Part shown: one piece after another, positions 25,717 through 60,718 of the stretch
Numbering within the stretch: the stretch's first letter is position 1
How the letters are laid out: the number at the start of each line of letters is the position of its first letter
DNA from: a virus
Taxonomy: Duplodnaviria > Heunggongvirae > Uroviricota > Caudoviricetes
Reading direction: 5' to 3' (one strand)
Virus record (IMG/VR): IMGVR_UViG_2713896908_000007
Length of the DNA: 64,000 nt
Program-made: the position numbers and the translations under genes
Notes under the pieces: generated by a model
Told to the model about the DNA's origin: nothing
The model's input: only the letters and a program-made list of their open reading frames with translations
The model's database searches: none

Positions 25717-25733
25717 AAATTAATTAGAGCAAT
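25717..25733 (-). promoter_or_regulatory. C1 operator (AAATTAATTAGAGCAAT)
   Basis: 16/17 match to ATTGCTCTAATAAATTT in reverse orientation, 20 bp upstream of ssb start. Confidence 0.6.
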
Positions 25734-25760
25734 AATGTATATCTTTGAAACGTAGCTAAC

Positions 25761-25779
25761 AAGTGATTTGCATTATCCT
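25761..25779 (+). promoter_or_regulatory. candidate late promoter (AAGTGATTT-N4-TATCCT) for lyz
   Basis: 9-bp inverted-repeat motif plus -10-like hexamer about 85 nt upstream of lyz. Confidence 0.45.
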
Positions 25780-25865
25780 GTGCCTTCTAAAGGGATCGAG
25801 TCAGTCGGTATTGGCTGTGAATGGGTGTTTGTCCTGGAGCGTAAAATTTCGCTTATGAGGTCTTT

Positions 25866-26423
25866 ATGAAGGGAAAAACAGCCGCAGGAGGCGGTGCAAT
25901 TTGCGCTATCGCGGTGATGATTACCATCGTGATGGGTAATGGCAATGTGCGAACCAACCAGGCGGGGCTTGAGCTGATTGGTAACGCTGAAGGTTGCCGA
26001 CGTGATCCATACATGTGCCCGGCAGGGGTATGGACTGACGGGATCGGTAATACACACGGGGTAACGCCGGGTGTGCGAAAAACAGACCAGCAAATCGCCG
26101 CTGATTGGGAAAAGAATATCCTGATCGCTGAACGCTGTATTAATCAGCACTTCCGGGGCAAAGACATGCCCGATAATGCCTTCAGTGCAATGACAAGCGC
26201 GGCATTCAATATGGGATGCAATAGCTTACGGACCTACTACAGCAAAGCGCGAGGCATGCGAGTAGAAACATCCATCCACAAGTGGGCGCAGAAAGGGGAA
26301 TGGGTGAATATGTGTAACCATCTCCCTGATTTCGTGAACAGTAACGGCGTGCCCTTGCGAGGTTTAAAGATTCGCCGTGAAAAAGAACGCCAGCTTTGCC
26401 TGACTGGGCTGGTCAATGAATAA
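25866..26423 (+). CDS. lyz: SAR endolysin (T4-lysozyme family), P1 Lyz-like
   Basis: 185-aa ORF; N-terminal Gly/Ala-rich signal-anchor-release segment; E…D…T catalytic spacing (ELIGNAEGCRRDPYMCPAGVWTDGIGNTHG). Confidence 0.9.
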   Translation: MKGKTAAGGGAICAIAVMITIVMGNGNVRTNQAGLELIGNAEGCRRDPYMCPAGVWTDGIGNTHGVTPGVRKTDQQIAADWEKNILIAERCINQHFRGKDMPDNAFSAMTSAAFNMGCNSLRTYYSKARGMRVETSIHKWAQKGEWVNMCNHLPDFVNSNGVPLRGLKIRREKERQLCLTGLVNE

Positions 26424-26670
26424 ACTCCGGCAGCTCCGCCGACTTTCGACAATGAAGTTATCGCTGGCGGCGATAGTTTTTGACTCGATTTTCATGGCGG
26501 TATATGTGCTCAATGAGACGTGGCCACTGGAACCGCTATTATATGCCGGGCTTCGGCTGTGCCTGACATTTTTGAGCATGGCTGCAAGATTGATGCAGCA
26601 GAAAGAAACCGCTTCAGATTGTCCACGCCGTGCGGTGCGCAAATATATGGCACGCAGGCGAAAGCGATAA
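26416..26670 (+). CDS. small membrane protein downstream of lyz (possible lysis accessory)
   Basis: 84-aa ORF overlapping the lyz stop; two hydrophobic segments and basic C-terminus. Confidence 0.45.
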   Translation: MNKLRQLRRLSTMKLSLAAIVFDSIFMAVYVLNETWPLEPLLYAGLRLCLTFLSMAARLMQQKETASDCPRRAVRKYMARRRKR

Positions 26671-26683
26671 TAGTTAACGAGAA

Positions 26684-26709
26684 CCCCGGCAGCCGCCGGG
26701 GTTATTTTT
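26684..26709 (+). terminator. rho-independent terminator
   Basis: ccccggc-agcc-gccgggg followed by ttattttt. Confidence 0.65.
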
Positions 26710-26714
26710 GGTGG

Positions 26715-27734: not shown

Positions 27735-29009
27735 TATATTGCCCTCCAGCTACCTTACCTAATGTCTGTTGGTATATTGGCTTTGATAACATTTTCGTCC
27801 GTGTATTCATTTATATACTCATTAGTTTCAATGTATTATATAGAACATGAAGCGTGCCTATAAATATCGATTCTATCCAACTCCCGAACAAACCGAGCTA
27901 TTAGCCCGGACTTTTGGGTGTGTGCGTTTTGTCTATAACAGCCTCCTTCGCTGGCGTACCGATGCATACTACGCACGCCATGAGAGGGTCGGCTATGCAC
28001 AAGCCAGCGCCAAATTAACGGCACTGAAAAAAGAACCAGAATTCGCTTGGCTGAATGACGTTTCCTGCGTCCCCCTCCAGCAGTCTCTGCGCCACCAACA
28101 AACGGCTTTTGCTAACTTTTTCGCCGGGCGTGCTGCATACCCAGTTTTTAAGAGCAAGCGGCATAAACAGGCCGCAGAACTAACTGCCAGCGCATTTAAA
28201 TACCGTGACGGCAAGCTGTACATGGCAAAGAGCAAAGAGCCGTTAGATGTTCGCTGGAGCCGTCCGTTGCCGTCTGCTCCATCCACTGTCACTATCACCA
28301 GGGATGCTGCCGGACGATATTTTGTATCCTGTCTCTGCGAGTTTGAGCCTGTATCACTGCCGATCACCGTTTCCACGGTCGGCATTGATATTGGTTTAAA
28401 AGATTTGTTCGTCACCGATACCGGTTTCAAAACTGGCAATCCTCGACACAACGCTAAATACGCGAAGCGATTAGCAGTGTTACAGCGCAGATTGAGCAAG
28501 AAACAAAAAGGCTCAAAGAACCGCGCCAAAGCACGTTTAAAGGTTGCCCGCCTCCACGCGAGAATAGTCGATTGTCGGATGGATAACCTGCATAAGTTGT
28601 CCCGCAAACTGATTAACGAAAACCAAGTTGTTTGCGTCGAATCCCTTAAAGTGAAAAACATGATCCGTAACCCGAAGCTGTCTAAAGCAATAGCTGACGC
28701 AGGCTGGAGCGAACTTGTACGCCAACTCCAGTACAAAGGAGAATGGGGTGGACGTAGCATTGTCGCTATCGACCAGTATTTCCCTTCTTCCAAACGTTGC
28801 AGCAGTTGCGGCTTCACCATGCAAAAAATGCCTCTTAATATTCGTAAATGGCACTGCCCGGAATGTGGCGCAGAGCATGATCGTGATATTAACGCGGCCC
28901 GTAATATAAAAGCTGCCGGGCTGGCAGTGTTAGCCCTTGGAGAGTCTGTAATTCCTAAGCCGCTTCATGTGGTTTAGGTCGGACTCTGTGAATTGGGAAT
29001 GTTTGCCGT
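27735..29009 (+). mobile_element. IS200/IS605-family TnpB-only element (boundaries approximate)
   Basis: Single tnpB ORF in opposite orientation between two co-directional head genes; no tnpA; ends not resolved. Confidence 0.4.
27847..28977 (+). CDS. tnpB: TnpB (RuvC-like RNA-guided nuclease of IS200/IS605 family)
   Basis: 376 aa; OrfB N-terminus MKRAYKYRFYPTPEQ…; RuvC motifs GIDIGLKD, ESLKV, CPECGAEHDRDINAARNI with CxxC…CxxC zinc finger. Confidence 0.9.
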   Translation: MKRAYKYRFYPTPEQTELLARTFGCVRFVYNSLLRWRTDAYYARHERVGYAQASAKLTALKKEPEFAWLNDVSCVPLQQSLRHQQTAFANFFAGRAAYPVFKSKRHKQAAELTASAFKYRDGKLYMAKSKEPLDVRWSRPLPSAPSTVTITRDAAGRYFVSCLCEFEPVSLPITVSTVGIDIGLKDLFVTDTGFKTGNPRHNAKYAKRLAVLQRRLSKKQKGSKNRAKARLKVARLHARIVDCRMDNLHKLSRKLINENQVVCVESLKVKNMIRNPKLSKAIADAGWSELVRQLQYKGEWGGRSIVAIDQYFPSSKRCSSCGFTMQKMPLNIRKWHCPECGAEHDRDINAARNIKAAGLAVLALGESVIPKPLHVV

Positions 29010-30740
<1,731 letters not shown>

Positions 30741-30773
30741 TTAATTAGAATAATTCGCATCGTGTTTTAACGG

Positions 30774-30792
30774 AATTTAACACTAGTCACTT
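30774..30792 (-). promoter_or_regulatory. candidate late promoter (AAGTGACTA-N4-TAAATT) for prt; near-palindromic, possibly bidirectional
   Basis: Motif in the 75-bp prt/darB divergent intergenic region. Confidence 0.45.
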
Positions 30793-30806
30793 GTTAAGGA
30801 TTACCA

Positions 30807-33800
30807 ATGAACAAGCTATCTATGGGGGTGTTTCGCTGTTCAAGCGTCAGCGAAATATTGAAATATATTAGGGCAATAACATCTCACCGAGCGCCGATTA
30901 AATACGGCGTGGAAAAGGTGGAAGGCAAAAGCTATGACCGACTGCGCCGGGAGGCGAATCAGAAGGCGATAGATTTGCTTAATTCGCTGGTGGACGGCGC
31001 GACACTGACAGATGAACAGCGCCAGATCCTGGCTGGGTACACCGGTGAAGGCGGCATTGGCGGGTCCGTCTCCGAATATTACACACCAAAGCCGATCGCT
31101 GAAGGTGTCTGGGAGATCATGAAGCTCTACGGCGCGGACGTAGGTAACACTCTGGAACCATCGGCGGGAACCGGCGTTTTTAATGAGACAAAACCGGTTG
31201 GTACGGTGATGACCGCGACTGAGATCAGCAGTGTTTCCGGTCGTATAAACCAGTTGTTACACCCGGAAGACAGCGTACAGATTTCCCCGTTCGAACAGCT
31301 GGCTATAAGCACGCCTAACGATTCATTCGACCATGTTGTGGGTAACGTTCCGTTCGGCGGTCGTGATAACACACGCAACATCGATAAGCCTTACGCAGAA
31401 GAAACGGACATGGGTTCTTACTTCATGCTCCGCATGCTGGACAAGATAAAGCCAGGCGGATTCATGTGCGTGATTGTGCCGCCGTCCATTGTTTCAGGTT
31501 CAAACATGAAGCGGTTACGCCTGCGCCTATCACGGAAAGCTGAATTTCTTGGTGCCCACCGCTTGCCTACCGGTACTTTTGACGCAAACGGGACCAGTAC
31601 AGTCGTTGATGTGGTGCTGATGCGCAAACATCCGGCAGAGATGGCTGAGAAAATCCCCCAGGTGGATGAAAGCACTCTTGAATCGGCAAATGTGCTTTGG
31701 CCAACGTTTATTTCAGGCAAGTGGTTTGAAAAGGACGGACGCCGGTTTGTTCATGGTGCCCAGGAAAAGGGCTTCCAGGGGCGTATTGAGGTTCGTGCCG
31801 ACGGGCAGATTGATAACCAGGCTCTTAAAACGAAGCTGATTCATCGTTTCGAAAGTCGTATCGACTGGTCTTTGCTCGATATGGCTGAACCGTCACCGAC
31901 CGCAGATGTTGTTGATGAAGGGGAAATGCGCCTGATTAATGGCGTATGGCAAAAATATGCTGGTGGTCGCTGGATTGAAGCTGATGCTGGTAAGGAGCTT
32001 AAGATTGATGCTGCCAGTTATGGCGCGGATAGCTGGGAGGCTCTTCAGCGTAACCTGACTACAACAGAAGGCCGTCTCGGTATGACATTTACCCAGATGG
32101 CAAATGTCCGCGATAAGTACACCACATCAATCAGCGACGATATGGTGCAGCTGGTGGACTGGATTAACAGCCAGCCTGAAAAATACCGTGAACGCTTGTA
32201 TCGCGGGGCGATGATTGGCCGGATGTTAATTGAATATCAGGACATGAAGGCCGCCGGGCATAGTGCTGAACAAATCGAACAGCAGCGCCTTTCTCTGGTA
32301 TCCCGTTTGCAGGCAGAGATTGATCGCTTTGGTAATCCTGGTCGCGGTCCTATAGCGAAATTGTCGGGGAGCGGTGCGCGCGCCTGGTTTGCTTTCCGTG
32401 GTGCGATTAAGCTGGATGGCACTATTTCTGACGAGCTGACAGGAAAGCTGGTTACGCATGATTCCAGCGCCAGTTATGACTCCACCAGCTATCAGGACAC
32501 CCTGCGTTATCTCTATAGCGATCTTACCCGCGATCCAATCCAGCTCGATGATTTCCGCCTTGCGTTTACCGGCGAACTGCCAGCCAGTGATGAAGAGTTG
32601 CTTAATTTATTGGCCAGCACCCCTGGTATTGCGGTTTCACCGTATGGCGGGATTGTTCCGTTCGCCCGCGCCACCAGCGGCGACATTAACGAGATAGTGG
32701 CTCCAAAACAGGAATTTCTTGCCACACTCCCCGACGGTCCAGTAAAGAACAACGTCCTTAATCAGCTGGCAGCGATCGAAGAGAAGCGCATCAAGACGCC
32801 AGCAGAGAATATCCGGTTTAAGCTCAATAGCCGTTGGTTTGACCGTTCCGTCATTCTGGAATTTTTGCAGGAAAACGGCTATCCGGATCTGCGCTATGTG
32901 CAGTCAGTGCAGCTGGAAGGCGACGAAATGGTTTCTGACACCTATCACGGTGGTGATGGTCTGTTCGTCGGGCACCGATACGGTGTCGTCCAGCGCAAGG
33001 ATAAAGAAACAGGCGAGATCCGCTACGAGTGGGACCGTAAATCAGGTGAAAACGCGACCGGGTTCCCGGCACAGCTGGAAAAGTATCTCAATGGTGCGCG
33101 TATCGGTGGCAAAGATAGCGCGACGGCGAACGGCTACCGCGAGCAGATGGCACTGCTTGAGGACCAGTTCAATAAGTGGATCAAGACGCACGATCGCTAC
33201 GATGAACTGGTTGCCAAATACAACGATGTGTTCAATAGCAATATCCCGTATGAACACTCTGGCGATCCGCTTGGGTTGAAGGGATTAAGCGGTAAGCGCC
33301 AGCCATTTGATTACCAGAATAGCGAGGTGCGCCGACTGTCCGAAGATGGGCGCGGCATCTTGGGCTTCGGCACCGGGCTGGGTAAAACCACGACCGCGCT
33401 GGCGCTTGAGGCGTTCAACTATGAGAACGGTCGCTCCACCCGTACTGCTTATGTAGTGCCTAAATCAGTGCTGGAAAACTGGTATTACGAAGCAAAAGAG
33501 TTCCTGAGTGAAGAGGCATTCAGTAACTACCTGTTCGTTGGTCTTGATGTGCTGATGGATGGCGATCAGATTCGCCAGGTGCCGGTGCTCGACGAGAACG
33601 GTAAACCTGTCCTTGGCGCTGATGGCGCTCCCGTTATGCGCGATGCTCTTAAACTGGCAGATGAAGCCACTATCACAGCAAGGATGAACGCGATTCCGCA
33701 CTCAAATTACCGTGCAGTCGTGTTTACCAAAGAACAATACGCCCGCATTCCGCTACGTGATGACACCGTAGATGAGCATGCACAAGACATGCTTTATGAC

Positions 33801-37560: not shown

Positions 37561-37581
37561 CAGGAGCGCCCGGTTCGCCGG

Positions 37582-38034
37582 GTGTCGCATAATATGGCCA
37601 CACTATCTGATACAATAAAACCGAATAAAACATATCTTGAGGCGGTACTCCGTACAGCGTTGTTAGGAAAGACAGAAGACGAATACGTTGATTTCTTCCT
37701 GTCAGGGCTACGCGGGCGATTACTGAAAAATCCCCGCCTGTACCGCAGCTATGGTCCATACTGGCCGGAAATTAAAAAATTATTACTGGAGCGCGGTTAT
37801 GGTAATTTCGGTCGTCTCGTTGACCGTGACGTTCGCAAAATTTACCGTTATGACCGCCCGGCGCTAACACTCATAGCCGCGACGCTCTACAGCCAGGAGC
37901 GTTTTGATAATGGTCAGATATACTCAGCCTGGCATTTACTGCCAGTGCCTGAAGAAGTTGACGACCAGGACTATGAGTTTGAGTCTTACGATTTGGAAGT
38001 TGAAGCCTTGGCACAGGCTGGAGAGAAAACTTGA
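37582..38034 (+). CDS. hypothetical protein
   Basis: 150-aa ORF, co-directional, 21 nt after previous stop. Confidence 0.5.
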   Translation: MSHNMATLSDTIKPNKTYLEAVLRTALLGKTEDEYVDFFLSGLRGRLLKNPRLYRSYGPYWPEIKKLLLERGYGNFGRLVDRDVRKIYRYDRPALTLIAATLYSQERFDNGQIYSAWHLLPVPEEVDDQDYEFESYDLEVEALAQAGEKT

Positions 38035-38279: not shown

Positions 38280-38290
38280 TGGTTTTGTTT

Positions 38291-38325
38291 CCCGGTATCG
38301 TATTATACCGGGAAATATCTTTTTA
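38291..38325 (+). terminator. stem-loop, possible terminator
   Basis: cccggtat/ataccggg stem; T-run begins 7 nt after the stem. Confidence 0.4.
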
Positions 38326-38327
38326 TA

Positions 38328-38735
38328 TTAACCCGCGGCTGCAATTAGTGCTGACCCAACCGCCAGTGTGGTGACAAGGCCTATAATGACCACTGTCGCT
38401 GTTACCCCTCCTGCAACAGCAGCTCCAGTCTTTGTTTTGGATAACTCTTTCTTTTCTAGAGAAATGATTTCACCCATAGGAATAGACTGGTTGTTAATAC
38501 CATTGATATATTGTGGGGTAACTTTCGATACTGTCATTTCACCTTCGCTACCTGATTTTAACTTGTATTTAATTAGGTCACCAGCATATATCGGCGGCTC
38601 CGTTAAATAATAGGTACTTCTTTCAAGATTTTTCTGCTGTATGTTAACTCCCTGATAAGACTGACATCCACATAACACAAGCGATAAAATTAGCGTTGTC
38701 AGTAATTTTCTTTTGTTTTTTATCATTGCCAGCAC
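38328..38735 (-). CDS. AT-rich lipoprotein with C-terminal Gly/Ala-rich membrane segment
   Basis: 135-aa ORF; signal peptide with lipobox-like LVLCGC; C-terminal AVAGGVTATVVIIGLVTTLAVGSALIAAAG; AT-rich with AT-rich upstream region. Confidence 0.6.
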   Translation of the reverse strand: MLAMIKNKRKLLTTLILSLVLCGCQSYQGVNIQQKNLERSTYYLTEPPIYAGDLIKYKLKSGSEGEMTVSKVTPQYINGINNQSIPMGEIISLEKKELSKTKTGAAVAGGVTATVVIIGLVTTLAVGSALIAAAG

Positions 38736-38860
38736 TCCTTCTCCTTTTCTTTGTATAGCTAAAACACATTATTTATTCTTGTCAAATAGTTTTGAGTTTG
38801 AGAGTGAGGTTTGCGTGACGACGCTCTAAAAGTTGCAGATAGCGGTAAAGATAATTTTAT

Positions 38861-39502
38861 TTACAATATGTTACCTTTTCCGGTAAGTATGCCTTGCGGT
38901 ACTTTACTTTCCCCCATTAGTTGAGTGGCATGAATGATATTAATAAATGACATTAGTTGTGATGAACTCTTATTAACATTTATCTCTCCTGCCATTGCCC
39001 TAATGTAGTCGGCGCTTGCAACGTTGTTATATTCCGTTGCGAAGCAGCATAACAACGTCAGAACGTGCTCTGTCGTTATTTCGCTCCAGTTGATGTTGAA
39101 AAATTCATCGCCTTTTTTGTCATGTTCGGAATCGAAGATGCTTTGGTGGAGGATGTATTTGCCGGATTCCTTGCGCGGTAACTTGATCGCTTTCTGGCGT
39201 TCCAATTCCTTGTAAATCTGCATTGCTTCAATCAGTACCGGCCTGCCGTTCATGAAGGGATCGCGCAACCTTACACGCTGGCCAACTCGACCAGTAATAA
39301 AGCTGTTTTCCTCTTCCACCAGCACGATAAAACCCTTTTCCTCTTTTTCTCGCAATTCGCGCAGCAGCTGGAGTTCCATATCGCGGCGGCGTTCAGGGTA
39401 GCTGGTCCGCTCAGCCATTATCAGCTCGTTATTGATCCATGCAGCAGTCATTGACGCCGGTTTGCCGACGTTCATCGAAACAACGCATATTTTCTTATCC
39501 AT
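38861..39502 (-). CDS. mat: particle maturation protein (P1 Mat-like by synteny)
   Basis: Track ORF extends to 39649 but a late-promoter motif lies at 39633-39651; ATG at 39502 (MDKKIC…) with GGGGG RBS preferred. Confidence 0.5.
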   Translation of the reverse strand: MDKKICVVSMNVGKPASMTAAWINNELIMAERTSYPERRRDMELQLLRELREKEEKGFIVLVEEENSFITGRVGQRVRLRDPFMNGRPVLIEAMQIYKELERQKAIKLPRKESGKYILHQSIFDSEHDKKGDEFFNINWSEITTEHVLTLLCCFATEYNNVASADYIRAMAGEINVNKSSSQLMSFINIIHATQLMGESKVPQGILTGKGNIL

Positions 39503-39651: not shown

Positions 39652-39691
39652 GTCAGTTGTCAATCATTTATTATTAAAAATAATATATTTA

Positions 39692-40252
39692 TTAGTGCAT
39701 GACGTTTGCCATCTCGTAAGCGTCAGCCAGCAACTCCATCTCTGACTTGTTCAGCAAGGTGAATTCTTTCTTGCCTCCAACCACACCATCGGCATGAACA
39801 GGGACCAGCCAGGGGTATTTTGCTCTTACTTCAGCCGGTGCTGCATGCTGGTGGTGCCATCTACAAAGAGGCAATTGCTTTTTATGACAACCCGGCGCGG
39901 TACGACCGGCGATATGGTGCAGAGACACCTCATTAGATATTACTCCATGCATATAGCAGGCAATGCAGGGGAGAGCGCCAAGAGCATTGGCGATGCGCCG
40001 TTCCTCCGCCGTTGGTGTTCTCCCCTTCAAGCCACGAGATTTTATTTTTACCGCGCTTTTCCGCGTTTTGCTGGCTGGTGGGCGTTCTTTCTGTTTAGCG
40101 ATACGGCGGTCGATAGTATCCCGCATTTTCTGATATTGAGATTCTCGCCAGACCGGATCAGCCAACTTCTCCCGTTGCCGAGCGATCGCTCGTTCTCTGG
40201 CTGCCTTCTGCCACTTACGGTGCTGTTCAATTTTTTGTTCGATTGTTTTCAT
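39692..40252 (-). CDS. ref: HNH-family recombination enhancement nuclease Ref
   Basis: 186-aa ORF; MKTIEQKIEQHRKWQKAARERA… with HNH-type core …SLHHIAGR…CRWHHQ…; position cre-cra-ref-mat as in P1. Confidence 0.85.
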   Translation of the reverse strand: MKTIEQKIEQHRKWQKAARERAIARQREKLADPVWRESQYQKMRDTIDRRIAKQKERPPASKTRKSAVKIKSRGLKGRTPTAEERRIANALGALPCIACYMHGVISNEVSLHHIAGRTAPGCHKKQLPLCRWHHQHAAPAEVRAKYPWLVPVHADGVVGGKKEFTLLNKSEMELLADAYEMANVMH

Positions 40253-40255
40253 AAG

Positions 40256-40283
40256 GTAAAAAAAAGGCGGCCTTTAGGCCGCC
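40256..40283 (-). terminator. hairpin plus U-tract immediately upstream of ref start (terminator/attenuator-like)
   Basis: ggcggcc-ttta-ggccgcc followed on the minus strand by nine T, ending 4 nt before the ref ATG. Confidence 0.45.
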
Positions 40284-50173: not shown

Positions 50174-50242
50174 CCTGTCACCTACTGATTAGCCCATGTC
50201 AACTAATCAACGTCGAATATAATACCCTCGATTAAAGAAATA

Positions 50243-50259
50243 GCAATACATTAGAGCAA
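50243..50259 (-). promoter_or_regulatory. C1 operator-like site upstream of lpa
   Basis: caatacATTAGAGCAAT, 14/17, 70 bp upstream of the lpa-like start. Confidence 0.5.
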
Positions 50260-50261
50260 TT

Positions 50262-51305
50262 TTATCTAACGCTCGACGAATGACTTGTGATAGCGCCGAC
50301 TCCAAGCGCGTAATCAAAGAACAATCGTTGATGCATCGCCAGCCTACCGTGCGTCTTCTCCCAATTATCGCGGTCACGCTCAATATCACGCTGGCATGAC
50401 TGGCACAGAGGAATAGCATAAATGTCATGCGCGCATAATCGACTATGACGAACGATATAAGGCGTAATGTGAGCGCCAGCTCCCGCAGCTCCACAGCCAC
50501 AGCATGGACGGGAAGCCACAAAATCCATGTACTCGGGCAATTTTAGCAATTGAAGTTTTGGTATTTTGAAATGCGCCATGCCAGGGTCGGAGTCAACATC
50601 CACAGGGCATACTTTTGCACGCATCGGCGCGGCGCGTTCTTCCATCATCTGAACATATGCTGTAGCGCGATCGTCATACGGGCGAATATCCGCCTCTTTC
50701 AGAGGTCCGCTATCCTGCGTTGCAGCCCTCACCTTATTTATTGATATACGGCAGACTTCTTCCGGCATGAGGTGGATCATGTTGCGCATGAAAGCCCACC
50801 AGCACAGCTCCTGAATACTTAAATCATGACCATCAGAAAGGCCCATTTCCTGACGAGCGACATCCAGTATCCAGTTAACGCGATTATTATGCAGCGTTTC
50901 TTTCAGCTCATTAAAACCACGCATCCGGTAATGATTATCGTGATGCCAGCACAACAACACCGCGCTGTTGTCTCGTTCAGCGTGGACAATATGGTTGTCA
51001 CACCAGCTACGATCTGCGGCCTGGCATTGCCCCTCTTTCCTGCGCAACCACGCCACCAGCGCGTCAATTCCACCAATACGGCGAAACAGTTCATCGCTGT
51101 TAAAAAACGGCTGCAACGCCTCATTTGTTGCCATAGTTTGCTCGGAAACAACGAGGCCGTCGTCCATGTGCTCGATTAACTCACGCGGCACCGGCTCCAT
51201 AATAAATTTACGGCCAGCCTCCACCAGCTTTCTGACTTCCTGATCCACTTTGAATGTGGCGACGCCAAGCTCTTTTTGTACAAAGGGAGTAATTACGGCT
51301 TTCAC
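50262..51305 (-). CDS. hypothetical Cys-rich protein (P1 PdcB-like by position)
   Basis: 347-aa ORF downstream of doc; C-terminal Cys cluster. Confidence 0.5.
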
Positions 51306-51332
51306 ATCACACCTTTCATCACTGATTTGGCT

Positions 51333-51533
51333 TTATCTGCTGCCCGGCATTTTCTGTTTAAGCACAACCATTTCCTGACGGCATAACACAGCAATAGCGG
51401 TCCTGGCACCAATTTGCTTACCAACCAGGTATTGCTTTACCTTGCGGCGACTCACGCCATCAAGAAGCATCTTTAACGCTTCACGGGACAATTTGTTGTA
51501 TTTGCGTGCCATTAATCTACTCCGCAGAACCAT
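51333..51533 (-). CDS. small basic protein downstream of doc
   Basis: 66-aa ORF overlapping the doc 3-prime end. Confidence 0.35.
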
Positions 51534-51897
51534 ACAATCTACGTAACGTGTCGGCGACAGAAGATACAGATATCTCGCCAGTCGCAGCGCCTACAGTAAG
51601 GTCTGCCAGTTCAGGTGAATCAAATACCTGCACCCCGTTACGGCGTAGAAATAGCAGCGCACTGTTTAGCGCGGTACGCTTATTGGCATCATTGAATATA
51701 TGCCCTCTCGCTGTAGCCACCAGGTAGGTGGCGGAGACTTCGAAAAGGTCGGTGATCTCTTCGTAGGCAACTCTGGCCTGAACTCTCCCGATAATGGCCT
51801 CTGCCCTACCCGGATCTGACATTCCCGGCAGGCCGCCGTAGCGGCTTATATTCGCATCATGAAGCGCAATAAGTTCTTCCGGTGATATATGCCTCAT
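51517..51897 (-). CDS. doc: Doc toxin (Fic-domain kinase) of phd-doc addiction module
   Basis: 126-aa ORF matching P1 Doc from memory ([26 protein letters not shown]…); overlaps phd stop. Confidence 0.93.
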
Positions 51898-52118
51898 TAT
51901 CGGTTAACCAGTTCCTTGTTGGTGGAGTCCAGGGTGTCAAACAGGGATGCAAATTCAGCATCCAGCGCCGCTTTTTTGTAGGCTTCGAAAGTGGCCTTGC
52001 TGACAATTACGGCTGATTCACGGCCTCTGCGGATGATTTCAACCTCTTCCCCTGCTTCAACATTATTGAGCACTTCGCTAAGGTTGCCGCGTGCGGTACG
52101 GAAGTTAATGGATTGCAT
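51897..52118 (-). CDS. phd: Phd antitoxin
   Basis: 73-aa [31 protein letters not shown]… (track start 52124 is an upstream GTG). Confidence 0.93.
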
Positions 52119-52124
52119 AAACAC

Positions 52125-52150
52125 CTCGTGTACTCGTTATGTGTACACAA
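52125..52150. promoter_or_regulatory. phd-doc promoter/operator region with GTGTAC(AC) palindromes
   Basis: cgtGTGTACtcgttatGTGTACACaa directly upstream of phd; Phd/Doc autoregulation at palindromic operators is established for P1. Confidence 0.5.
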
Positions 52151-52294
52151 TTATAAACTTCACAAGCATAAAGCACCAGCACTTTGCAGCTTAACAAAAC
52201 TCTAGGCAGGTCATTCGTTGCCTAATATCCGAACTACTAAAGCATCAGAGTTGCTGTAGAATCACCGCCAATTACATAAGCCTGAAATAAGTGG

Positions 52295-53857
52295 ATGAAA
52301 ATGACAAGTATTCAACAACGTGCAGAGCTTCATCGTCAAATCTGGCAAATTGCTAACGATGTCAGGGGTTCGGTCGATGGATGGGATTTTAAGCAATACG
52401 TTCTGGGCGCACTTTTCTACCGTTTTATCAGCGAAAATTTTTCCAGTTATATGGAAAATGGTGATGACAGCATCTGTTATGCGGCACTTGATGACGGCAT
52501 TATTACTGATGACATTAAAGACGATGCCATCAGAACCAAAGGCTACTTCATCTACCCCAGTCAGCTTTTCTGCAACGTAGCGGCGAAAGCAAATACCAAT
52601 GACAGACTGAATGCAGATTTAAATAGTATCTTCGTTGCTATCGAAAGCTCTGCTTACGGTTACCCTTCAGAAGCTGACATCAAAGGTTTGTTTGCTGATT
52701 TTGATACAACCAGTAACCGCCTGGGTAACACCGTTAAGGATAAAAATGCCCGCCTGGCTGCGGTTCTGAAAGGGGTCGAAGGGTTAAACCTTGGTGACTT
52801 CAATGAACATCAGATTGACCTGTTCGGTGATGCCTATGAGTTCCTGATTTCTAACTATGCGGCAAATGCCGGTAAGTCAGGCGGTGAGTTCTTTACACCG
52901 CAGCACGTCTCCAAGCTGATTGCACAACTGGCTATGCACGGGCAGACCCACGTTAACAAAATCTACGACCCGGCCGCGGGTTCCGGTTCGCTGTTGTTGC
53001 AGGCTAAAAAGCAGTTTGATAACCATATCATTGAAGAAGGCTTTTTCGGACAGGAAATCAACCATACGACCTATAACCTGGCACGTATGAACATGTTTTT
53101 GCACAACATCAACTACGACAAGTTTGATATCAAGCTGGGCAATACGCTGACTGAACCGCACTTCAGAGATGAAAAACCGTTTGATGCCATCGTCTCTAAC
53201 CCGCCGTATTCGGTGAAATGGATTGGCAGCGATGACCCGACGCTGATTAACGATGAACGTTTTGCCCCGGCTGGCGTTCTGGCCCCCAAATCCAAAGCTG
53301 ACTTTGCGTTTGTACTACATGCGCTGAACTATCTTTCGGCCAAAGGTCGCGCCGCGATTGTCTGCTTCCCGGGTATTTTTTACCGTGGCGGCGCGGAGCA
53401 GAAAATCCGTCAGTATCTGGTTGACAATAACTATGTCGAAACCGTGATTTCACTGGCACCGAACCTGTTCTTTGGCACCACCATTGCCGTAAATATTCTG
53501 GTGCTGTCTAAACATAAAACGGATACCAAAGTTCAGTTTATTGACGCCAGCGAACTGTTCAAAAAAGAGACTAACAACAACATCCTGACCGATGCCCATA
53601 TCGAAAAAATTATGCAGGTATTTTCCAGCAAGGAAGATGTTGCTCATCTGGCGAAATCTGTCACGTTTGAGACCGTTGTCGCGAATGACTATAACCTGTC
53701 GGTAAGCAGCTATGTGGAAGCGAAAGATAACCGCGAAATTATCGATATCGGTGAGCTGAATGCTGAGCTGAAAACCACGGTCAGCAAAATCGACCAGTTG
53801 CGCAAAGATATTGATGCGATTGTGGCTGAAATTGAAGGCTGCGAGGTGCAGAAATGA
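52295..53857 (+). CDS. hsdM: type I restriction-modification methyltransferase subunit HsdM
   Basis: 520 aa; SAM motif [11 protein letters not shown] and catalytic NPPY (SNPPYSVKW). Confidence 0.95.
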
Positions 53858-55074
53858 GCGAGATGAGTTATCTGGAAAAATTGCTGGATGGGGTTGAGGT
53901 TGAGTGGTTGCCATTGGGGGAAGTCTCAGCCTTAAGAAGAGGCAGAGTTATGTCAAAGGGATATTTAACTGAAAATTTTGGCCCATATCCTGTCTATAGC
54001 TCTCAAACTGCAAATAATGGGAAAATAGGTTCTATCAATACCTTCGATTTTGATGGCGAATATATAAGCTGGACAACAGATGGCGCAAATGCAGGCACTG
54101 TGTTCTATCGAACAGGTAAATTTTCAATAACTAATGTTTGCGGCCTGATTACATTAAAAAGTAAATACCCATTAATCTACAAATTTCTGTTTTACTGGCT
54201 AACAATAGAAGCCAAAAAACATGTTTACTCAGGAATGGGAAACCCCAAGTTAATGAGTCATCAGGTTGAAAATATACCTGTACCAATCCCCTGCCCGGAT
54301 AATCCGGAAAAATCCCTTGCCATCCAGTCTGAAATCGTTCGGATTCTGGATAAATTTACTGAGCTTACAGCTGAGCTTACAGCTGAGCTTACAGCTGAGC
54401 TTACCATGCGTAAAAAACAGTACAACTACTATCTTGACCAGTCGCTAAGTTTTAAAGAGGGTGAGGTCGAGTTGAAAACGTTGGGAGAGATGGGGACACT
54501 TATAAGAGGCAAACGCTTTGTGAAATCCGACATAATTCCCAAGGGAGTACCGTGTATTCACTACGGTGAAATGTATACCCATTACCGCATCTGGGCGGAT
54601 AAAGCAAAATCGTATATCTCTGTTGAATTAGCGTCCAAGTTAAGAAAAGCCTCATGCGGAGATGTTGTTTTTGTCTCTGCGGGTGAAACAATTGCAGATA
54701 TTGGTCGTGGAACAGCCTGGTTAGGCGATGAAGATGTTGTTATTCATGACGCATGTTTTTTCTATAAAAGTTCATTGAACCCCAAGTATGTGGCCTACTT
54801 CTCAAGAACAAATTTCTTCCACGATCAGATTAAAAAATCGATCTCTTCGGGGAAAATTTCTGCCATCAATGCCAAAGGCTTTGAAAAAGTGATTATTCCA
54901 GTTCCTTCACCAGAAGAACAAGCACGCATCGTTGCTTTCTTGGACAAATTCGACACATTGACAAGCTCCATCACCGAAGGCTTACCCCGTGAAATAGAAC
55001 TACGCCAGAAGCAGTACGAGTACTATCGTGATTTACTGTTCAGTTTCCCAAAACCTGAAGCTGTCAGTAATTAA
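53854..55074 (+). CDS. hsdS: type I restriction-modification specificity subunit HsdS (type IC-like with TAEL repeats)
   Basis: 406 aa; two target-recognition halves separated by a central region with three TAEL repeats; ATGA-coupled to hsdM. Confidence 0.92.
54361..54405 (+). repeat. 12-bp tandem repeat (gagcttacagct x3 plus partial) encoding TAEL repeats in hsdS
   Basis: Direct reading; repeat number of this element sets target spacer length in EcoR124-type type IC systems. Confidence 0.85.
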
Positions 55075-55195
55075 TTGACCATTGCTACCGACCGGGCCAC
55101 CTTAACACCCGGTCAGTATATAGACTATTTTTTACACGCTGGAAGTCACCATTAACGCCCTTCCGGCCCTTGCCAGACGGCACAAAGGATACGCT

Positions 55196-58100
55196 ATGAC
55201 TCATCAAACACACACCATTGCTGAATCCAATAACTTTATCGTTCTTGATAAATACATCAAAGCTGAGCAAACAGGCGACAGCTATCAGAGCGAATCGGAC
55301 CTGGAACGTGAACTGATTCAGGACCTGCAAAATCAGGGCTATGAATTTATATCCGTAAAATCACAGTCAGCGATGCTGGCCAACGTTCGGGAACAGCTTC
55401 AGAGCCTCAATGGTGTGATGTTTAATGACAGAGAGTGGCGGCGTTTCACGGAGCAGTATCTGGACAACCCGAGCGATGGCATTCTGGATAAGACCCGTAA
55501 AATCCATATCGACTATATTTGCGACTTTATTTTTGATGACGAGCGACTTGAGAACATCTATTTGATAGATAAAAAGAATCTCATGCGCAATAAGGTGCAG
55601 ATTATCCAGCAGTTTGAACAGACGGGTTCTCATGCTAACCGTTATGACGTCACGATCCTGGTTAATGGTTTACCGCTGGTGCAAATCGAACTAAAAAAAC
55701 GCGGGGTGGCGATTCGTGAGGCTTTCAACCAGATACATCGTTACAGTAAAGAGAGTTTTAACAGCGAAAATTCCCTGTTTAAGTATCTGCAACTGTTTGT
55801 CATTTCTAACGGCACCGATACCCGTTACTTTGCCAACACCACAAAGCGCGATAAAAACAGTTTTGACTTCACAATGAACTGGGCGAAATCAGACAACACG
55901 CTGATTAAAGACCTCAAAGACTTTACCGCTACCTTTTTCCAGAAACATACTCTGCTGAATGTTCTGGTGAACTACAGCGTTTTTGACAGTAGTCAGACGC
56001 TACTGGTGATGCGACCGTACCAGATTGCAGCTACCGAACGAATTTTATGGAAAATCAACAGTTCCTATAAAGCGAAAAACTGGTCCACTCCCGAAAGTGG
56101 TGGCTTTATCTGGCACACCACCGGTTCCGGTAAAACACTGACCAGCTTTAAAGCCGCGCGTCTGGCAACAGAACTGGACTTTATTGATAAAGTCTTCTTC
56201 GTGGTCGACAGAAAAGACCTCGATTACCAGACGATGAAGGAATATCAGCGTTTTTCGCCAGACAGCGTCAACGGCTCGGAAAATACCGCAGGACTTAAAC
56301 GAAATCTGGATAAGGACGATAACAAAATTATCGTCACCACTATTCAGAAACTCAATAACCTGATGAAAGCAGAAAGCGACCTGCCTGTATACAATCAGCA
56401 AGTGGTGTTTATATTTGATGAATGTCACCGCAGCCAGTTTGGAGAAGCACAGAAAAACCTGAAGAAGAAATTCAAACGCTATTATCAGTTTGGTTTTACC
56501 GGCACACCTATTTTCCCGGAAAACGCCTTAGGCTCAGAAACAACCGCCAGCGTATTTGGCCGTGAATTGCATTCATATGTTATTACCGATGCGATTCGTG
56601 ACGAAAAAGTGCTCAAATTCAAGGTGGACTACAACGATGTGCGGCCACAGTTTAAGTCTTTAGAGACAGAAACTGACGAGAAAAAACTGAGTGCGGCTGA
56701 AAATCAGCAGGCGTTTCTTCATCCCATGCGTATTCAGGAAATCACGCAATATATCCTGAACAACTTCCGCCAGAAAACCCACCGTACTTTCCCTGGTTCC
56801 AAAGGTTTTAATGCCATGCTGGCAGTAAGCAGCGTGGATGCTGCAAAAGCCTATTATGCGACGTTTAAACGGTTACAAGAGGAAGCCGCTAATAAATCTG
56901 CAACTTATAAACCGCTGCGTGTTGCGACAATCTTCTCCTTTGCCGCTAATGAAGAACAAAATGCCATTGGTGAAATTTCCGATGAAACTTTTGATACCAG
57001 CGCAATGGACAGCAGTGCTAAAGAGTTTCTTGACGCTGCAATTCGTGAGTATAACAGCTATTTTAAAACTAACTTCAGCACCGACGGTAACGGTTTTCAG
57101 AACTACTATCGTGATTTAGCCCAACGGGTTAAAAATCAGGATATCGATCTGTTAATTGTCGTTGGGATGTTTTTAACCGGCTTCGACGCTCCAACATTGA
57201 ACACGCTATTCGTCGATAAAAACTTGCGTTTTCACGGCCTGATGCAGGCATTTTCCCGCACCAACCGTATTTATGATGCAACTAAAACCTTCGGTAATAT
57301 CGTCACTTTCCGCGATCTGGAACGCTCAACCATCGATGCCATAACGCTGTTTGGTGACAAAAACACCAAAAATGTAGTGTTAGAAAAGAGTTATGCAGAG
57401 TATATGGAAGGCTTTACTGATGCTGCTACTGGTGAAGCTAAGCGCGGCTTTATGGCAGTAGTTGCAGAACTGGAACAACGGTTCCCTGACCCTGCCAGTA
57501 TTGAAAGTGAAAAAGAGAAGAAAGACTTCGTTAAACTGTTTGGTGAATACCTGCGTACCGAGAACATCCTGCAAAACTATGATGAATTTGCCACGCTGAA
57601 AGCCCTGCAACAAATCGATCTTAGCGATCCTGTTGCAGTAGAAAAATTCAAAGCAGAACATTATGTGGATGATGAAAAGCTCGCTGAATTGCAAACAATT
57701 CGTCTCCCTGCTGATCGCAAGATTCAGGATTATCGTTCTGCCTATAACGATATTCGCGACTGGCAGCGCCGTGAGAAAGAAGCTGAGAAAAAAGAGAAAT
57801 CAACCATTGACTGGGATGACGTAGTTTTTGAGGTCGATTTGCTGAAGTCTCAGGAAATAAACCTGGATTATATCCTTGGACTGATTTTCGAACACAACAG
57901 ACAAAATAAAGGCAAGGGCGAAATGATCGAAGAGGTCAAACGCTTAATTCGTTCAAGCCTAGGGAACCGTGCTAAAGAGGGCTTGGTGGTCGATTTTATT
58001 CAGCAAACGAACCTGGATGATTTACCAGATAAAGCCAGTATCATTGAGGCATTCTTTACGTTTGCTCAACGCGAACAGCAACGTGAAGCAGAAGCATTGA

Positions 58101-58312
58101 TAAAAGAAGAAAATCTCAATGAAGAAGCAGCAAAACGCTATATTCGCACGTCTTTAAAACGCGAATACGCCACCGAAAATGGCACAGAATTAAACGAAAC
58201 ATTACCAAAACTTAGTCCGTTGAATCCGCAATATAAAACGAAAAAACAGGCAGTTTTCCAGAAAATCGTCTCGTTTATTGAGAAGTTTAAAGGCGTAGGC
58301 GGAAAAATATAG
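55196..58312 (+). CDS. hsdR: type I restriction endonuclease subunit HsdR
   Basis: 1038 aa; Walker [17 protein letters not shown]-like FDECHRSQ, C-terminal helicase motifs. Confidence 0.95.
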
Positions 58313-58328
58313 CCCAATTCGTGTTTTT

Positions 58329-58356
58329 CTTGCGGGTTCTTAATTAAACCCGCAAG
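58329..58356. other. perfect 10-bp stem-loop after hsdR
   Basis: cttgcgggtt-cttaatta-aacccgcaag; no U-tract. Confidence 0.5.
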
Positions 58357-58391
58357 AGCTCGTGGGGTTCCAAATGGCTAATATACTCCCA

Positions 58392-58478
58392 TTACCCATG
58401 CGCGACGATGCCGCCAAAAGTGATAGAGAACAGCCAGAAATAGATCGCGGCCATAATGATTTTGAATGCCGTGTTCAT
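58392..58478 (-). CDS. candidate 28-aa hydrophobic peptide (MNTAFKIIMAAIYFWLFSITFGGIVAHG)
   Basis: ATG preceded by AGGAG; antisense between hsdR and the following terminator; below the ORF-track size cut-off. Confidence 0.3.
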   Translation of the reverse strand: MNTAFKIIMAAIYFWLFSITFGGIVAHG

Positions 58479-58506
58479 ATCCTCAGCTCCTGTGATTGAT
58501 TGGATA

Positions 58507-58537
58507 CATGCCGCGCCTTGCGGCATGTTTTTATTTT
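58507..58537 (+). terminator. rho-independent terminator downstream of the hsd operon
   Basis: catgccgc-gcctt-gcggcatg followed by tttttatttt. Confidence 0.6.
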
Positions 58538-58559
58538 CACCATCTCTGTTTAAAAATCA

Positions 58560-58576
58560 AGTTTTATTAGAGCAAT
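58560..58576 (-). promoter_or_regulatory. C1 operator (agTTTTATTAGAGCAAT)
   Basis: 15/17 to consensus; overlaps the stop of the adjacent phosphatase-like gene and faces the hsd insertion. Confidence 0.5.
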
Positions 58577-59082
58577 TATTGTTGATAAAGAAGCGCATTT
58601 TCATACTCCCTGACCATTAACGTAAGTACGCCGTGACTCCTGAAAACACGCGCCACTTCAATCTTATCTTCCAGCGCGAACGCAATTTTACTTAGACCAA
58701 TTTTCTTCAGGAGATCAATCTTTGCTGGACCGTCATTTCTGTCATCGGTGGCAGGACGCATAGATAGCAAAGGCTCAGCCCCGTTTGTTACGTGCTTCCG
58801 CAGCCAGGCTCGTGTTTTATCCCTTGCGATCTCACAGCGCCCGGTTACAAACCAGACCGTGTAAACGTTAAATAACTGGCGCACCATATCAATAACTGGA
58901 GTTATGGGAGTATCGGTGTCACAGGCGAGATTAAACTCGTTCCAGTCCTTTGTTAATGCACCTTTACCTGGTGGCGGAAGCAAATGCAGTCTGTCTTCAG
59001 TTGCCTCTGATATTGTTCCATCAATATCAACTATGACGATATACGGACGTTCATGGTGTGCGTGTTGGTTGAAAATACTCAA
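58576..59082 (-). CDS. HAD-superfamily phosphatase-like protein
   Basis: 168-aa ORF; HAD motif I IVIVDIDGT. Confidence 0.55.
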   Translation of the reverse strand: MSIFNQHAHHERPYIVIVDIDGTISEATEDRLHLLPPPGKGALTKDWNEFNLACDTDTPITPVIDMVRQLFNVYTVWFVTGRCEIARDKTRAWLRKHVTNGAEPLLSMRPATDDRNDGPAKIDLLKKIGLSKIAFALEDKIEVARVFRSHGVLTLMVREYENALLYQQ

Positions 59083-59154
59083 ATGCCCTCCTCATTGGAC
59101 GAAAAAAATGCTGGTGGGCGCACTCCACCAGCATTAAAAGTGACACTGTAACTA

Positions 59155-60417
59155 TCAGCGAACGTAAATAGTGCCGCCGTTCTCTTTTTCCCATGCATCG
59201 CTACGTGCATAGCAAACATCGAGAAGTCTTCTTGCCGCTGTTTCCTCTAAACCCAATTCGACAACCAACTGCTCATGACGGCGGGTAACCACATCAAACA
59301 GGGTATGCAACCCTTTAGTTGCCAGATCATCAATGAATTCCGGTTCGAACGGCAGCTCTGCATCTGCCAACATAACCTCTTGCGCCCACTCAACTCGACG
59401 GACCAGTTCCGGGCGGCGGCTTTCCATCTCTTTACAGATCAATTCATGGAAGAACTCTACCCAACCCTCCGGCTGGAACTCGCGGAAAATGGCCAACGGC
59501 TGGAAGTTTGGCATCAACCATTCGTTGATCCGGATATCAATGGCATAGCCCATGTCGCAGCAGAACTGATAAGCAAAGTCCAGCTTAGAAACGATATAAG
59601 GACGCTCGTTATTGAACTCTTTAGGCGATGAGATCCCATAAGCCAGGAGGCGCGGGAAGAAGGAGATTTGCCCTAACGTCGGATGAAGTTTGCTTGCAGG
59701 GAAACGGCGCTCAGTAATGCCATACATTTCCTTCTTGAGCGTCGCAAATTTGGCATTCTCATTAACCAGCGCGGTAACCTCTGCTTTTTTATTAGCAAAT
59801 GCCACGCGCGCTTCGCTTGCATCTTTAATAGTTTTTTTGAGCTGTTGGTTAAGGTCGGCGACCTGCTTACGCAGTTCCTGTCGCTCGCTTTTAGCTTTGT
59901 TATAGCGTTTCTCAAGGTTAAAAGGATCAAGTTTCATGATCTCTTTATATTGAGATTTTAGCGTTGAAATCTGTGAGTTCCGCAGTTCAACCATCGCGGT
60001 CATTTCATTGAGTTTTGTTTCCAGCTCAATGCTTATACGTTCGGCATTATCAGCACGCTGGTTGGCGTCATGCGTCGCATCGTCGATCGCGTCCTGTTGC
60101 TGGCGTTTCAAATGTTCAATTTGCAGCTGAAGCTCTTCAATTTCTTTACCCTTCAGACCGAGATCCAACTGCATATTTTCAGCTGCATCTACCAGGTCGT
60201 TATGGCTATCAGCTTCTGCGTTATAAACATCAATAAGCTGTGCATGGAGCATCTCTGCTGACTGAACCGCATTATCAAAAAAACGAGCTGTGAGGTCATC
60301 ACAACTAACGCGGCGTTGCGCGGCCCGGATGTTCTGGATAATGGCCGGGATACCGGCATTCAGGACATCAGGGATAGATACATTTTCGATTGATTGGTTT
60401 TGTGCTGAAGTGCTCAT
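59155..60417 (-). CDS. hypothetical protein with N-terminal coiled-coil
   Basis: 420-aa ORF; heptad-rich residues about 90-230; no catalytic motif recognised. Confidence 0.55.
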   Translation of the reverse strand: MSTSAQNQSIENVSIPDVLNAGIPAIIQNIRAAQRRVSCDDLTARFFDNAVQSAEMLHAQLIDVYNAEADSHNDLVDAAENMQLDLGLKGKEIEELQLQIEHLKRQQQDAIDDATHDANQRADNAERISIELETKLNEMTAMVELRNSQISTLKSQYKEIMKLDPFNLEKRYNKAKSERQELRKQVADLNQQLKKTIKDASEARVAFANKKAEVTALVNENAKFATLKKEMYGITERRFPASKLHPTLGQISFFPRLLAYGISSPKEFNNERPYIVSKLDFAYQFCCDMGYAIDIRINEWLMPNFQPLAIFREFQPEGWVEFFHELICKEMESRRPELVRRVEWAQEVMLADAELPFEPEFIDDLATKGLHTLFDVVTRRHEQLVVELGLEETAARRLLDVCYARSDAWEKENGGTIYVR

Positions 60418-60651
60418 TTCAAAGTTCCGTATTAGCTTGTTCTTCGGTCATTTTTCCTAAGTATGAAGGTGGAAGGACTACGCAATTTGTATCCAGCCCC
60501 TCACCTATGGCAGCCTGTAAAATTCTGGCTAAGGTGAGCCTCTTGTTGCGATACCTGGTGATGACATGCCTGATACCGCCGGTCGGCGTAACAAAGGCGA
60601 TCAGCCAGTAGTGATATTTCCGTCGGAATGGCCACATAGTGTACCTTGCAG

Positions 60652-60717
60652 ATTGCTCTAATAAAAAACGTGATGAGTGTACATCACGTTTTAAAAATAT
60701 GGAATTATTAGAGCAAT
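60652..60717. promoter_or_regulatory. bipartite C1 operator (two inverted sites flanking a palindrome)
   Basis: ATTGCTCTAATAAAAAA (60652-60668) and reverse ggaATTATTAGAGCAAT (60701-60717) flank the palindrome aacgtgatg-agtgta-catcacgtt; upstream of the 420-aa gene. Confidence 0.55.
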
Positions 60718-60718
60718 A

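Follow-up and report, generated by a model that had tools for sequence, protein, structure and literature searches.

The element and its repressor genes

The 64,000-nucleotide (nt) window analyzed here, a stretch of DNA from IMG/VR record IMGVR_UViG_2713896908_000007, carries the genes of a P1-like phage, and dispersed among them are sites resembling the operators of the P1 lysogeny repressor C1. A megablast search of positions 20000–64000 against phage records returned P1, P7, SJ46, RCS47 and other Punavirus genomes at 93–98% identity. Local alignment to the P1 genome (AF234172) shows that the window is collinear with P1 in the reversed orientation, with collinearity broken by a handful of insertions and replacements. 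The plasmid pHNTH9F11-2 was considered as a copy of the same element and excluded, as it has been rearranged by IS26. The aligned segments are:

21185–42327, reverse: P1 26188 down to 1
42328–43897, reverse: P1 94800 down to 93232
45626–64000, reverse: P1 93204 down to 78869

The genes for the repressor and two proteins that modulate it lie within these segments:

43047–43898 (+): c1; the C1 protein is identical to P1 C1.100 at 281 of 283 residues (99%)
42727–42936 (+): coi, the C1 inactivator; Coi is identical to P1 at 68 of 69 residues
38031–38279 (+): lxc (bof), the C1 corepressor; Lxc is identical to P1 at 82 of 82 residues

Because all three proteins are nearly identical to those of P1, the P1 operator specificity should be reasonably transferable to this element. 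By the scheme established in P1, C1 would bind each asymmetric 17-bp site, Lxc would strengthen that binding, and the Coi and Ant proteins would inactivate the repressor. Bound C1 overlapping or just downstream of sigma-70 promoters would leave the adjacent genes silent in the lysogen; these would comprise ssb, ref, mat, cra-cre, coi, c1 itself and the late-gene activator lpa, together with the pmgR-pmgS operon, the ppp operon and immI.

C1 operators in the window

The consensus used for searching was the asymmetric 17-bp word ATTGCTCTAATAAATTT, which contains the near-invariant core GC(T/A)CTAAT. At up to 3 mismatches it matches the window 12 times, compared with a mean of 0.26 (maximum 2) in dinucleotide-preserving shuffles. 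A position weight matrix (PWM) built from the annotated P1 operators identifies 15 sites at 16–26 bits, with the next best candidate at 11.5 bits. An independent matrix, constructed from only four P1 operators that all lie outside the span homologous to the window (Oc4, OrepL, Orlf and O26), finds 12 sites scoring at least 15 bits, compared with 1.03 in sequences simulated from a first-order Markov model. Agreement with the consensus ranges from 12 to 16 of 17 positions, except at Oc1b, which agrees at 10 of 17 here and in P1 alike; the core is departed from at 30861, where C occupies core position 6.

Segments of 137 bp around each site were aligned to P1, with the protein-binding features of AF234172 taken as its operators. 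In total, 16 candidate operators are recognized: 13 align with annotated P1 operators at the same positions and are mostly identical in sequence, one is of the Op51 type (45604), and two are unannotated in P1 (40827 and 30861). The 13 positional homologues are:

25717–25733 (−): Ossb (former Op21), 16/17, 19 nt upstream of the ssb start codon; identical to P1 21015–21031, flanks 99% identical
39685–39701 (−): Omat (former Op2b), overlapping the end of ref, upstream of mat; 17-mer identical to P1 2628–2645
40351–40367 (−): Oref (former Op2a), 13/17, in the ref promoter region; aligns with P1 1962–1978
42388–42404 (−): Oc1e (former Op99e), before lox-cra-cre; identical to P1 94724–94740
42472–42488 (+): Oc1d (former Op99d), in the spacer of promoter P1coi (TTGACA at 42466–42471); identical to P1 94641–94657
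42764–42780 (+): Oc1c (former Op99c), within coi; identical to P1 94349–94365
42936–42963: Oc1ab, bivalent (former Op99a,b), over promoter Pc1; Oc1a at 42936–42952 (+) is identical to P1, Oc1b at 42947–42963 (−) differs at 1 nt
50244–50260 (−): Olpa (former Op94), 70 nt upstream of lpa; identical to P1 89904–89920
58560–58576 (−): OpmgT (former Op88), adjoining the stop codon of pap and accompanied by the PpmgT promoters; aligns with P1 84293–84309
60652–60668 (+): OpmgRb (former Op86b), 14 nt upstream of the pmgR start codon; aligns with P1 82201–82217
60701–60717 (−): OpmgRa (former Op86a), immediately following the stop codon of pmgQ and overlapping the predicted PpmgR promoter at its −35; identical to P1 82152–82168
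63418–63434 (+): Oppp (former Op83); aligns with P1 79435–79451

An earlier note on this DNA, made from the sequence alone, had listed 11 sites and attributed them to the dispersed C1 regulon of P1. All 11 exist: ten are among the 12 consensus matches, and the eleventh, 40351, is recovered by the PWM. Two details need correction. The site placed at 50243 begins at 50244, and 40351, which had been credited with 14–16 of 17 matches, reads ATTGCTCTAATTTGTTG and agrees at 13, with a PWM score of 16.1 bits. The site at 42472, described as lying inside a TTGACA promoter, is abutted by that hexamer and fills the promoter spacer (TTGACA-ATTGCTCTAATAAATTA-TAGCTT). The assignments to ssb, ref, cra/cre, coi-c1, lpa and the pap/pmgR side match the operator annotation of AF234172, the named sites align with its 'phage repressor C1' features, and the scan with P1 operators that the note had proposed as a check recovers the network. 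Five sites were absent from that list: 30861, 39685 (Omat), 42764 (Oc1c), 42947 (Oc1b, overlapping Oc1a) and 63418 (Oppp). It gave 45604 and 40827 without explanation; the former belongs to a second immI module and the latter to c8, as described below.

Could the sites be chance matches of an AT-rich word? Such an origin would suit only the weakest of them, 30861 and 40351, and the crude matrix of four operators is indeed expected to yield about one random site of at least 15 bits per window. Chance does not account for 12 consensus matches, a number reached in 0 of 100 shuffles, nor for the positional homology to annotated operators and the conservation of these positions in a phage with proteins ~50–90% identical to those encoded here. 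For the set as a whole, chance is already refuted. The window is thus best read as a P1-like plasmid prophage whose sites are the dispersed operators of its own C1 repressor, a reading to which we would assign a probability of about 0.9. Weighing against it is that all functional statements for this element are drawn from homology to P1. In addition, a simple promoter scanner reported no promoter at 45604 or 40827. P1 carries annotated promoters at the homologous sites (P1coi, Pc1, P2ref, P2ssb, Plpa, PpmgR and PpmgT), few of which were found by the scanner alone; since this promoter and terminator scanner missed known P1 promoters and also the hairpin between the Op86 operators, its output was not counted against those features.

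The network itself is already known and is the textbook C1 regulon of P1. P1 has 22 dispersed C1 operators with the same consensus (PMC8546580), and the repressor, corepressor, anti-repressor and consensus found here are those of the described regulon (immC; Op2a/b, Op21, Op83, Op86a/b, Op88, Op94, Op99a–e; AF234172, Lobocka et al. 2004), as are the Op86 pair and the palindrome between its members. The main finding is therefore a rediscovery, with nothing new in its central claim. The side results offer modest help in annotating P1-like plasmids, hundreds of which are present in Enterobacteriaceae. They consist of two operator positions missing from the reference P1 and P7 records, an apparently C1-controlled second antirepressor module beside c1 that includes a C4 RNA and an isrK-like RNA, a 28-codon open reading frame (ORF) under Op88 that lacks annotation, and a reading of the Op86 palindrome as a terminator between two operators. 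Relative to P1, the element also has a weaker Oref (13/17).

Two observations concern individual operators. Across 72 contigs, the core of Oppp is conserved and both of its flanks are variable. Oc1e (42388–42404) and Op88 (58560–58576) have in common the operator plus a downstream TTGATTTTT segment, which points to an operator-promoter cassette present in more than one copy.

Comparison with Cronobacter phage JK004

As almost every publicly available relative shows >95% identity in these regions, the distantly related Cronobacter phage JK004 was chosen for comparison. Its C1 is 77% identical, and its other proteins are 49–89% identical. High-scoring sites in JK004 lie before ref (25.8 bits), c8, ssb, lpa and c1, in a divergent pair at cra/coi, after pap, as two convergent sites between pmgQ and pmgR, and within the 5' end of darB. 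The JK004 scan serves as a phylogenetic footprint of the predicted C1 network, and it raises the standing of the candidate sites at 40827 and 30861.

Candidate operators before c8 and within darB

The two sites unannotated in P1 are:

40827–40843 (−): candidate operator between cre and c8, ATTGCTCTAATTATTTT, 15/17, PWM 24.7 bits, 16 nt upstream of the c8 start codon
30861–30877 (−): candidate operator in darB, ATTGCCCTAATATATTT, PWM 19 bits, at darB codons 19–24, pointing to prt

At the position of the c8 site, P1 and P7 have ATTGCTATAAT, with no operator annotated there. A single C-to-A difference separates the core TGCTCTAAT of this element from TGCTATAAT in P1 and P7, so that an intact core here faces CTATAAT in the two reference phages. 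Among 27 viral contigs, the core is intact in 19, and the P1 allele is present in 8; the cre side of the region is highly variable in these contigs, and the operator and c8 side are conserved. JK004 has ATTGCTCTAATAATTTA at the equivalent position, between flanks that cannot be aligned. By our own reading of the sequence, the P1/P7 allele TGCTATAAT constitutes a perfect extended −10 element and is a predicted promoter.

At the darB site, P1 has ATTGCCCTAATGTATTT, also unannotated, and most viral contigs agree with P1; CCCTAAT and CACTAAT variants occur in these contigs. JK004 has ATTGCTCTAATAAATCT at the same darB codons, and its core difference is a synonymous change of an Arg codon. The site was at first viewed as a chance match in coding sequence, a view that was dropped once the JK004 homologue had been found. 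Two properties still count against an operator here: the C at core position 6 occurs in no annotated P1 operator, and the site lies in coding sequence, so that protein constraint alone could explain its conservation. Binding of C1 at 30861 is uncertain.

Both sites are near-consensus in distant JK004, and for that reason the c8 and darB/prt operators may be ancestral, with degraded copies in P1 and P7. If so, the C1 regulon of natural P1-like plasmids would exceed the one annotated in the laboratory phages, and the c8 position would act as a constitutive promoter in P1 and P7 but be repressed by C1 in the majority of wild elements. We regard this scenario as tentative and as having the odds against it. 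Were it true, expression of c8, which is putatively involved in the establishment of lysogeny, would be changed.

Just upstream of the prt start, at 30745–30765 (−), lies an operator-like word, ATTATTCTAAT, which is conserved with JK004 and falls in the prt ribosome-binding region. Its variant core also occurs at other loci, namely JK004 24822 and some Omat alleles.

A second immI module between c1 and pacB

In P1, c1 and pacB are adjacent, and nothing homologous to 45604 is found between them. This element carries a 1.7-kb insertion at 43898–45625 with the following features:

45604–45620 (−): Op51 (Oc4)-type operator, 15/17, with a P51a-like promoter, directly after the pacB stop codon
43931–45529 (−): second immI-type module, comprising an isrK-like RNA, a C4 RNA, icd and ant
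45451–45529 (−): isrK-like RNA with a strong terminator, Rfam 58 bits
45319–45406 (−): C4 antisense RNA, Rfam RF01695, 75 bits against a gathering score of 45
45043–45264 (−): icd paralogue, downstream of C4
43931–45046 (−): ant paralogue, 371 residues, 55% identical to P1 Ant1, with ORF6N and KilAC domains

The first 45 nt of the module, containing the operator and promoter, align with P1 Oc4/Op51 (P2c4) and promoter P51a, and the remaining leader is ~87% identical to the immI region of phage D6. The site at 45604 is, as judged from these alignments, the predicted operator of this second immI-type module. The order of parts follows P1 immI (Oc4/Op51, P51a/P51b, c4, icd, ant1/2), in which an operator, a C1-controlled promoter and a constitutive promoter precede the C4 RNA, icd and ant. 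The module differs from P1 immI in several respects: an isrK-like RNA with its own terminator takes the place of a1/b1, the leader is D6-like, Ant has an ORF6N middle domain, and the module adjoins c1, not sim/kilA. Upstream of c4, where the a1/b1 target element would be expected, Rfam reports the isrK-like RNA and no c4-a1b1 match, whereas the canonical immI regions of P1 and of pHNTH9F11-2 do give c4-a1b1 matches. The isrK-like (Hfq-binding) RNA ends in its strong terminator ahead of c4-icd-ant.

The module is present in addition to a canonical immI in RCS47, JL22, vB_EcoM-673R5 and pHNTH9F11-2; the canonical immI of the last of these gives a C4 match alongside c4-a1b1. RCS47 and JL22 are 92% identical across the module, and of 703 matching plasmid records, ~215 have its regulatory region beside pacB. 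For the P1-like plasmids RCS47 and pTZ20_1P, an insertion of two short ORFs and ant between pacB and c1 has been described (Venturini et al. 2019, PMC6906374). The insertion site and gene content are the same as here; the C1 operator, isrK-like RNA and C4 RNA recognized in this element are unannotated in the records inspected.

The palindrome between the Op86 operators

The two operators between pmgQ and pmgR, Op86b and Op86a, form a perfect 13-bp inverted repeat, and between them lies a palindrome with 11-bp inner arms (60665–60675 and 60682–60692). The region 60643–60777 is 99% identical to P1 (98.5–99% around OpmgRb), and the part running from operator through palindrome to operator is identical. 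The earlier note had seen a bipartite inverted pair around the palindrome AACGTGATG-N6-CATCACGTT. Both the pair and the palindrome, which lies at 60667–60690 and is single-copy in the window, are real; the palindrome, however, does not belong to the operators and behaves as a conserved RNA hairpin and terminator. Comparison of the pair is limited in that a scan of genome contigs gave two Escherichia loci only, and the set of viral contigs is dominated by one allele. The hairpin and its counterpart in the ref leader are:

60665–60692 (−): hairpin with an 11-bp stem (AAAACGUGAUG/CAUCACGUUUU) followed by UUUUUUAUU, after pmgQ
40266–40283 (−): intrinsic terminator of the ref leader, located downstream of Oref and ahead of the ref start codon; GGCGGCC-TAAA-GGCCGCC with a T8 run after it

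Several lines of evidence bear on the function of the palindrome. First, the RNA hairpin folds at −13.4 kcal/mol (z-score −6.3), and no shuffled sequence folds as well. Second, the tract UUUUUUAUU gives a U-tract (U6AUU) on the − strand, which is the strand of pmgQ and pmgR; it is the complement of the unusual A-rich tail of Op86b. Third, the hairpin begins 27 nt after the pmgQ stop codon (60719–60721), and hence at the end of a transcription unit. Fourth, in an alternative allele found in four viral contigs (AACATGGTG/CACCATGTT) and in JK004, the stem is kept by two compensatory pair changes, a covariation seen at two pairs in three diverged sequences; it rests on one alternative allele and JK004, and on only three independent hairpin variants. 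Three further changes in JK004 affect one side only; read on the − strand, all of them are G-U pairs, whereas the opposite strand would have A-C mismatches. Singleton one-sided variants of the hairpin are split about evenly between the strands and were left unused as strand evidence.

Most likely, then, the palindrome is an intrinsic (Rho-independent) terminator of the upstream pmgN-pmgQ operon. Some observations speak against this interpretation. The stem has only 4 G-C pairs, and the simple terminator scan described above did not report the hairpin. The neighboring promoter PpmgR is only predicted and has a weak −10 (TAAAAC), so that a start site inside the hairpin is putative. In the P1 record, this promoter has its −35 inside Op86a, a 17-nt spacer, and a −10 that runs into the 5' arm of the hairpin. 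Op86a would thus clamp predicted PpmgR at its −35, and Op86b would sit just upstream of the pmgR start codon. Transcripts from PpmgR would lack the full hairpin, since its 5' arm overlaps the predicted −10.

The ref gene offers a model for a second interpretation. A C1 operator and promoter are followed there by a ~55-nt leader with a conserved terminator just before the start codon, and this layout is the same in this element, P1 and JK004; the terminator is kept in P1, and compensatory changes preserve it in JK004. It probably corresponds to the ref attenuator of a 1988 paper by Windle, Laufer and Hays, cited in PMC4713147, whose title names promoter-operator and attenuator control of ref. 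By analogy, the Op86 palindrome might be an attenuator in the leader of a C1-controlled pmgR transcript, and the second immI module likewise has a terminator, that of its isrK-like RNA, after an operator and promoter. The Op86 arrangement differs from that of ref in that the hairpin begins at the predicted −10 and a second, inverted operator overlaps its U-tract. PpmgR, the sole promoter annotated at this place in P1, ends 1–2 nt into the 5' arm, and its transcripts would carry an incomplete stem. We consider attenuation of pmgR unlikely, though conceivable.

A third possibility is that the palindrome acts as double-stranded DNA, either as a site for a dimeric regulator or as a cruciform, in cooperation with two flanking C1 molecules. 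The perfect 9–11-bp dyad nested in the perfect inverted repeat of the operators would fit such a role, and paired changes in the arms would also be expected if half-sites had co-evolved with a binding protein. The palindrome is not centered between the operators, however, but lies 0 nt from Op86b and 12 nt from Op86a. Moreover, the G-U pairs of JK004 fit the sense RNA strand only, and the U-tract follows the stem on that same strand. No second copy of the palindrome is found in the window, even at 3 mismatches, and its candidacy as a repeated regulator site was rejected on that ground. A DNA-level role is therefore improbable, distinctly more so than attenuation, and termination after pmgQ is the preferred reading.

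Op88 and the hsd cassette

Downstream of Op88, the element differs from P1 in facing hsd genes in place of pmgT:

52195–58387 (+): hsdM-hsdS-hsdR type IC restriction-modification cassette, replacing P1 84483–87969 (pmgT to humD)
58506–58528 (−): hairpin in the Op88 leader, downstream of the operator
58478 down to 58392 (−): unannotated 28-codon hydrophobic ORF, MNTAFKIIMAAIYFWLFSITFGGIVAHG, with a good to strong ribosome-binding site

The cassette encodes the Pfam domains EcoR124_C, T1R_D3-like, HSDR_N, N6_Mtase and Methylase_S, and HsdR matches EcoR124I HsdR (PDB 2w00) over its full length at 2259 bits. Its junctions (P1 87970 and 84482) coincide with positions at which, according to the P1 record, homology to the flanks of the EcoDXXI and R124/3 hsd loci ends. 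Compared with the P1-flanked type IC loci EcoR124I and EcoDXXI, the present cassette sits in an otherwise complete P1-like prophage backbone. Although the earlier note had spoken of an insertion, hsd is not a simple insertion but an allelic replacement of pmgT-humD found in about a quarter of P1-like contigs: among viral contigs covering the region, 48 have pmgT beside Op88 and 18 have the hsdR end. It is a common allele, not a private insertion.

The earlier note had also described Op88 as orphaned against hsd. The operator does face hsd, but it is only partly orphaned: the pmgT operon has been lost, and a small conserved ORF is still headed by Op88, with the hsd junction just after its stop codon. 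The 28-codon peptide is identical in P1 (84393–84479, with no coding sequence annotated in AF234172) and in 45 of 48 pmgT-type contigs; in JK004, the counterpart of Op88 precedes a diverged homologue of it.

Op88 may still be functional in hsd-carrying elements, with the 28-codon ORF under its control and with transcription antisense to hsdR starting from it upon induction. The operator core is intact in this element, the ORF keeps its full length in all hsd-type contigs examined and is here identical to that of P1, and the leader hairpin has no U-tract in this direction, so that transcripts could run on into hsdR. The mutation pattern points the other way. The operator core is mutated in 5 of 18 hsd-type contigs compared with 2 of 48 pmgT-type contigs (Fisher p = 0.014); when the −35 is included, the counts become 8 of 18 and 3 of 48 (p = 0.0008). 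The peptide is altered in 11 of 17 hsd-type and 3 of 48 pmgT-type contigs. In this element itself, the Op88 promoter region has four changes; its operator tail is AAAACT compared with AAATCT in P1, and a 1-nt deletion lies in the promoter spacer. As the contigs are related and not phylogenetically independent, this pattern of relaxed constraint is suggestive only. Retained function of Op88 beside hsd is accordingly a doubtful proposition, although a plausible one.

On the + strand, a T-run follows the hairpin at 58506–58528, and the structure resembles a terminator for transcription coming from hsdR. The same hairpin is present in P1, which has no hsd genes. Its retention in P1 suggests that the hsd arrangement may be as old as that of P1.

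Other differences from P1

At ~36561, a 14-bp deletion relative to P1 divides darB into ORFs of 1924 and 342 codons, which indicates a probable pseudogene or an assembly error. At 38280–38984, a 705-bp sequence stands in place of the EcoP1 type III res-mod genes (P1 3345–9749); it contains one 135-codon ORF that has no Pfam match. In place of that type III system, the element has its type IC system elsewhere. Two solo TnpB genes (IS605 OrfB/Cas12f-like) are present at 27747–29024 and 48386–49720. One is inserted at the prt/pro overlap, where an 18-bp duplication leaves both genes intact, and the other lies between lpa and the pacA late promoter.

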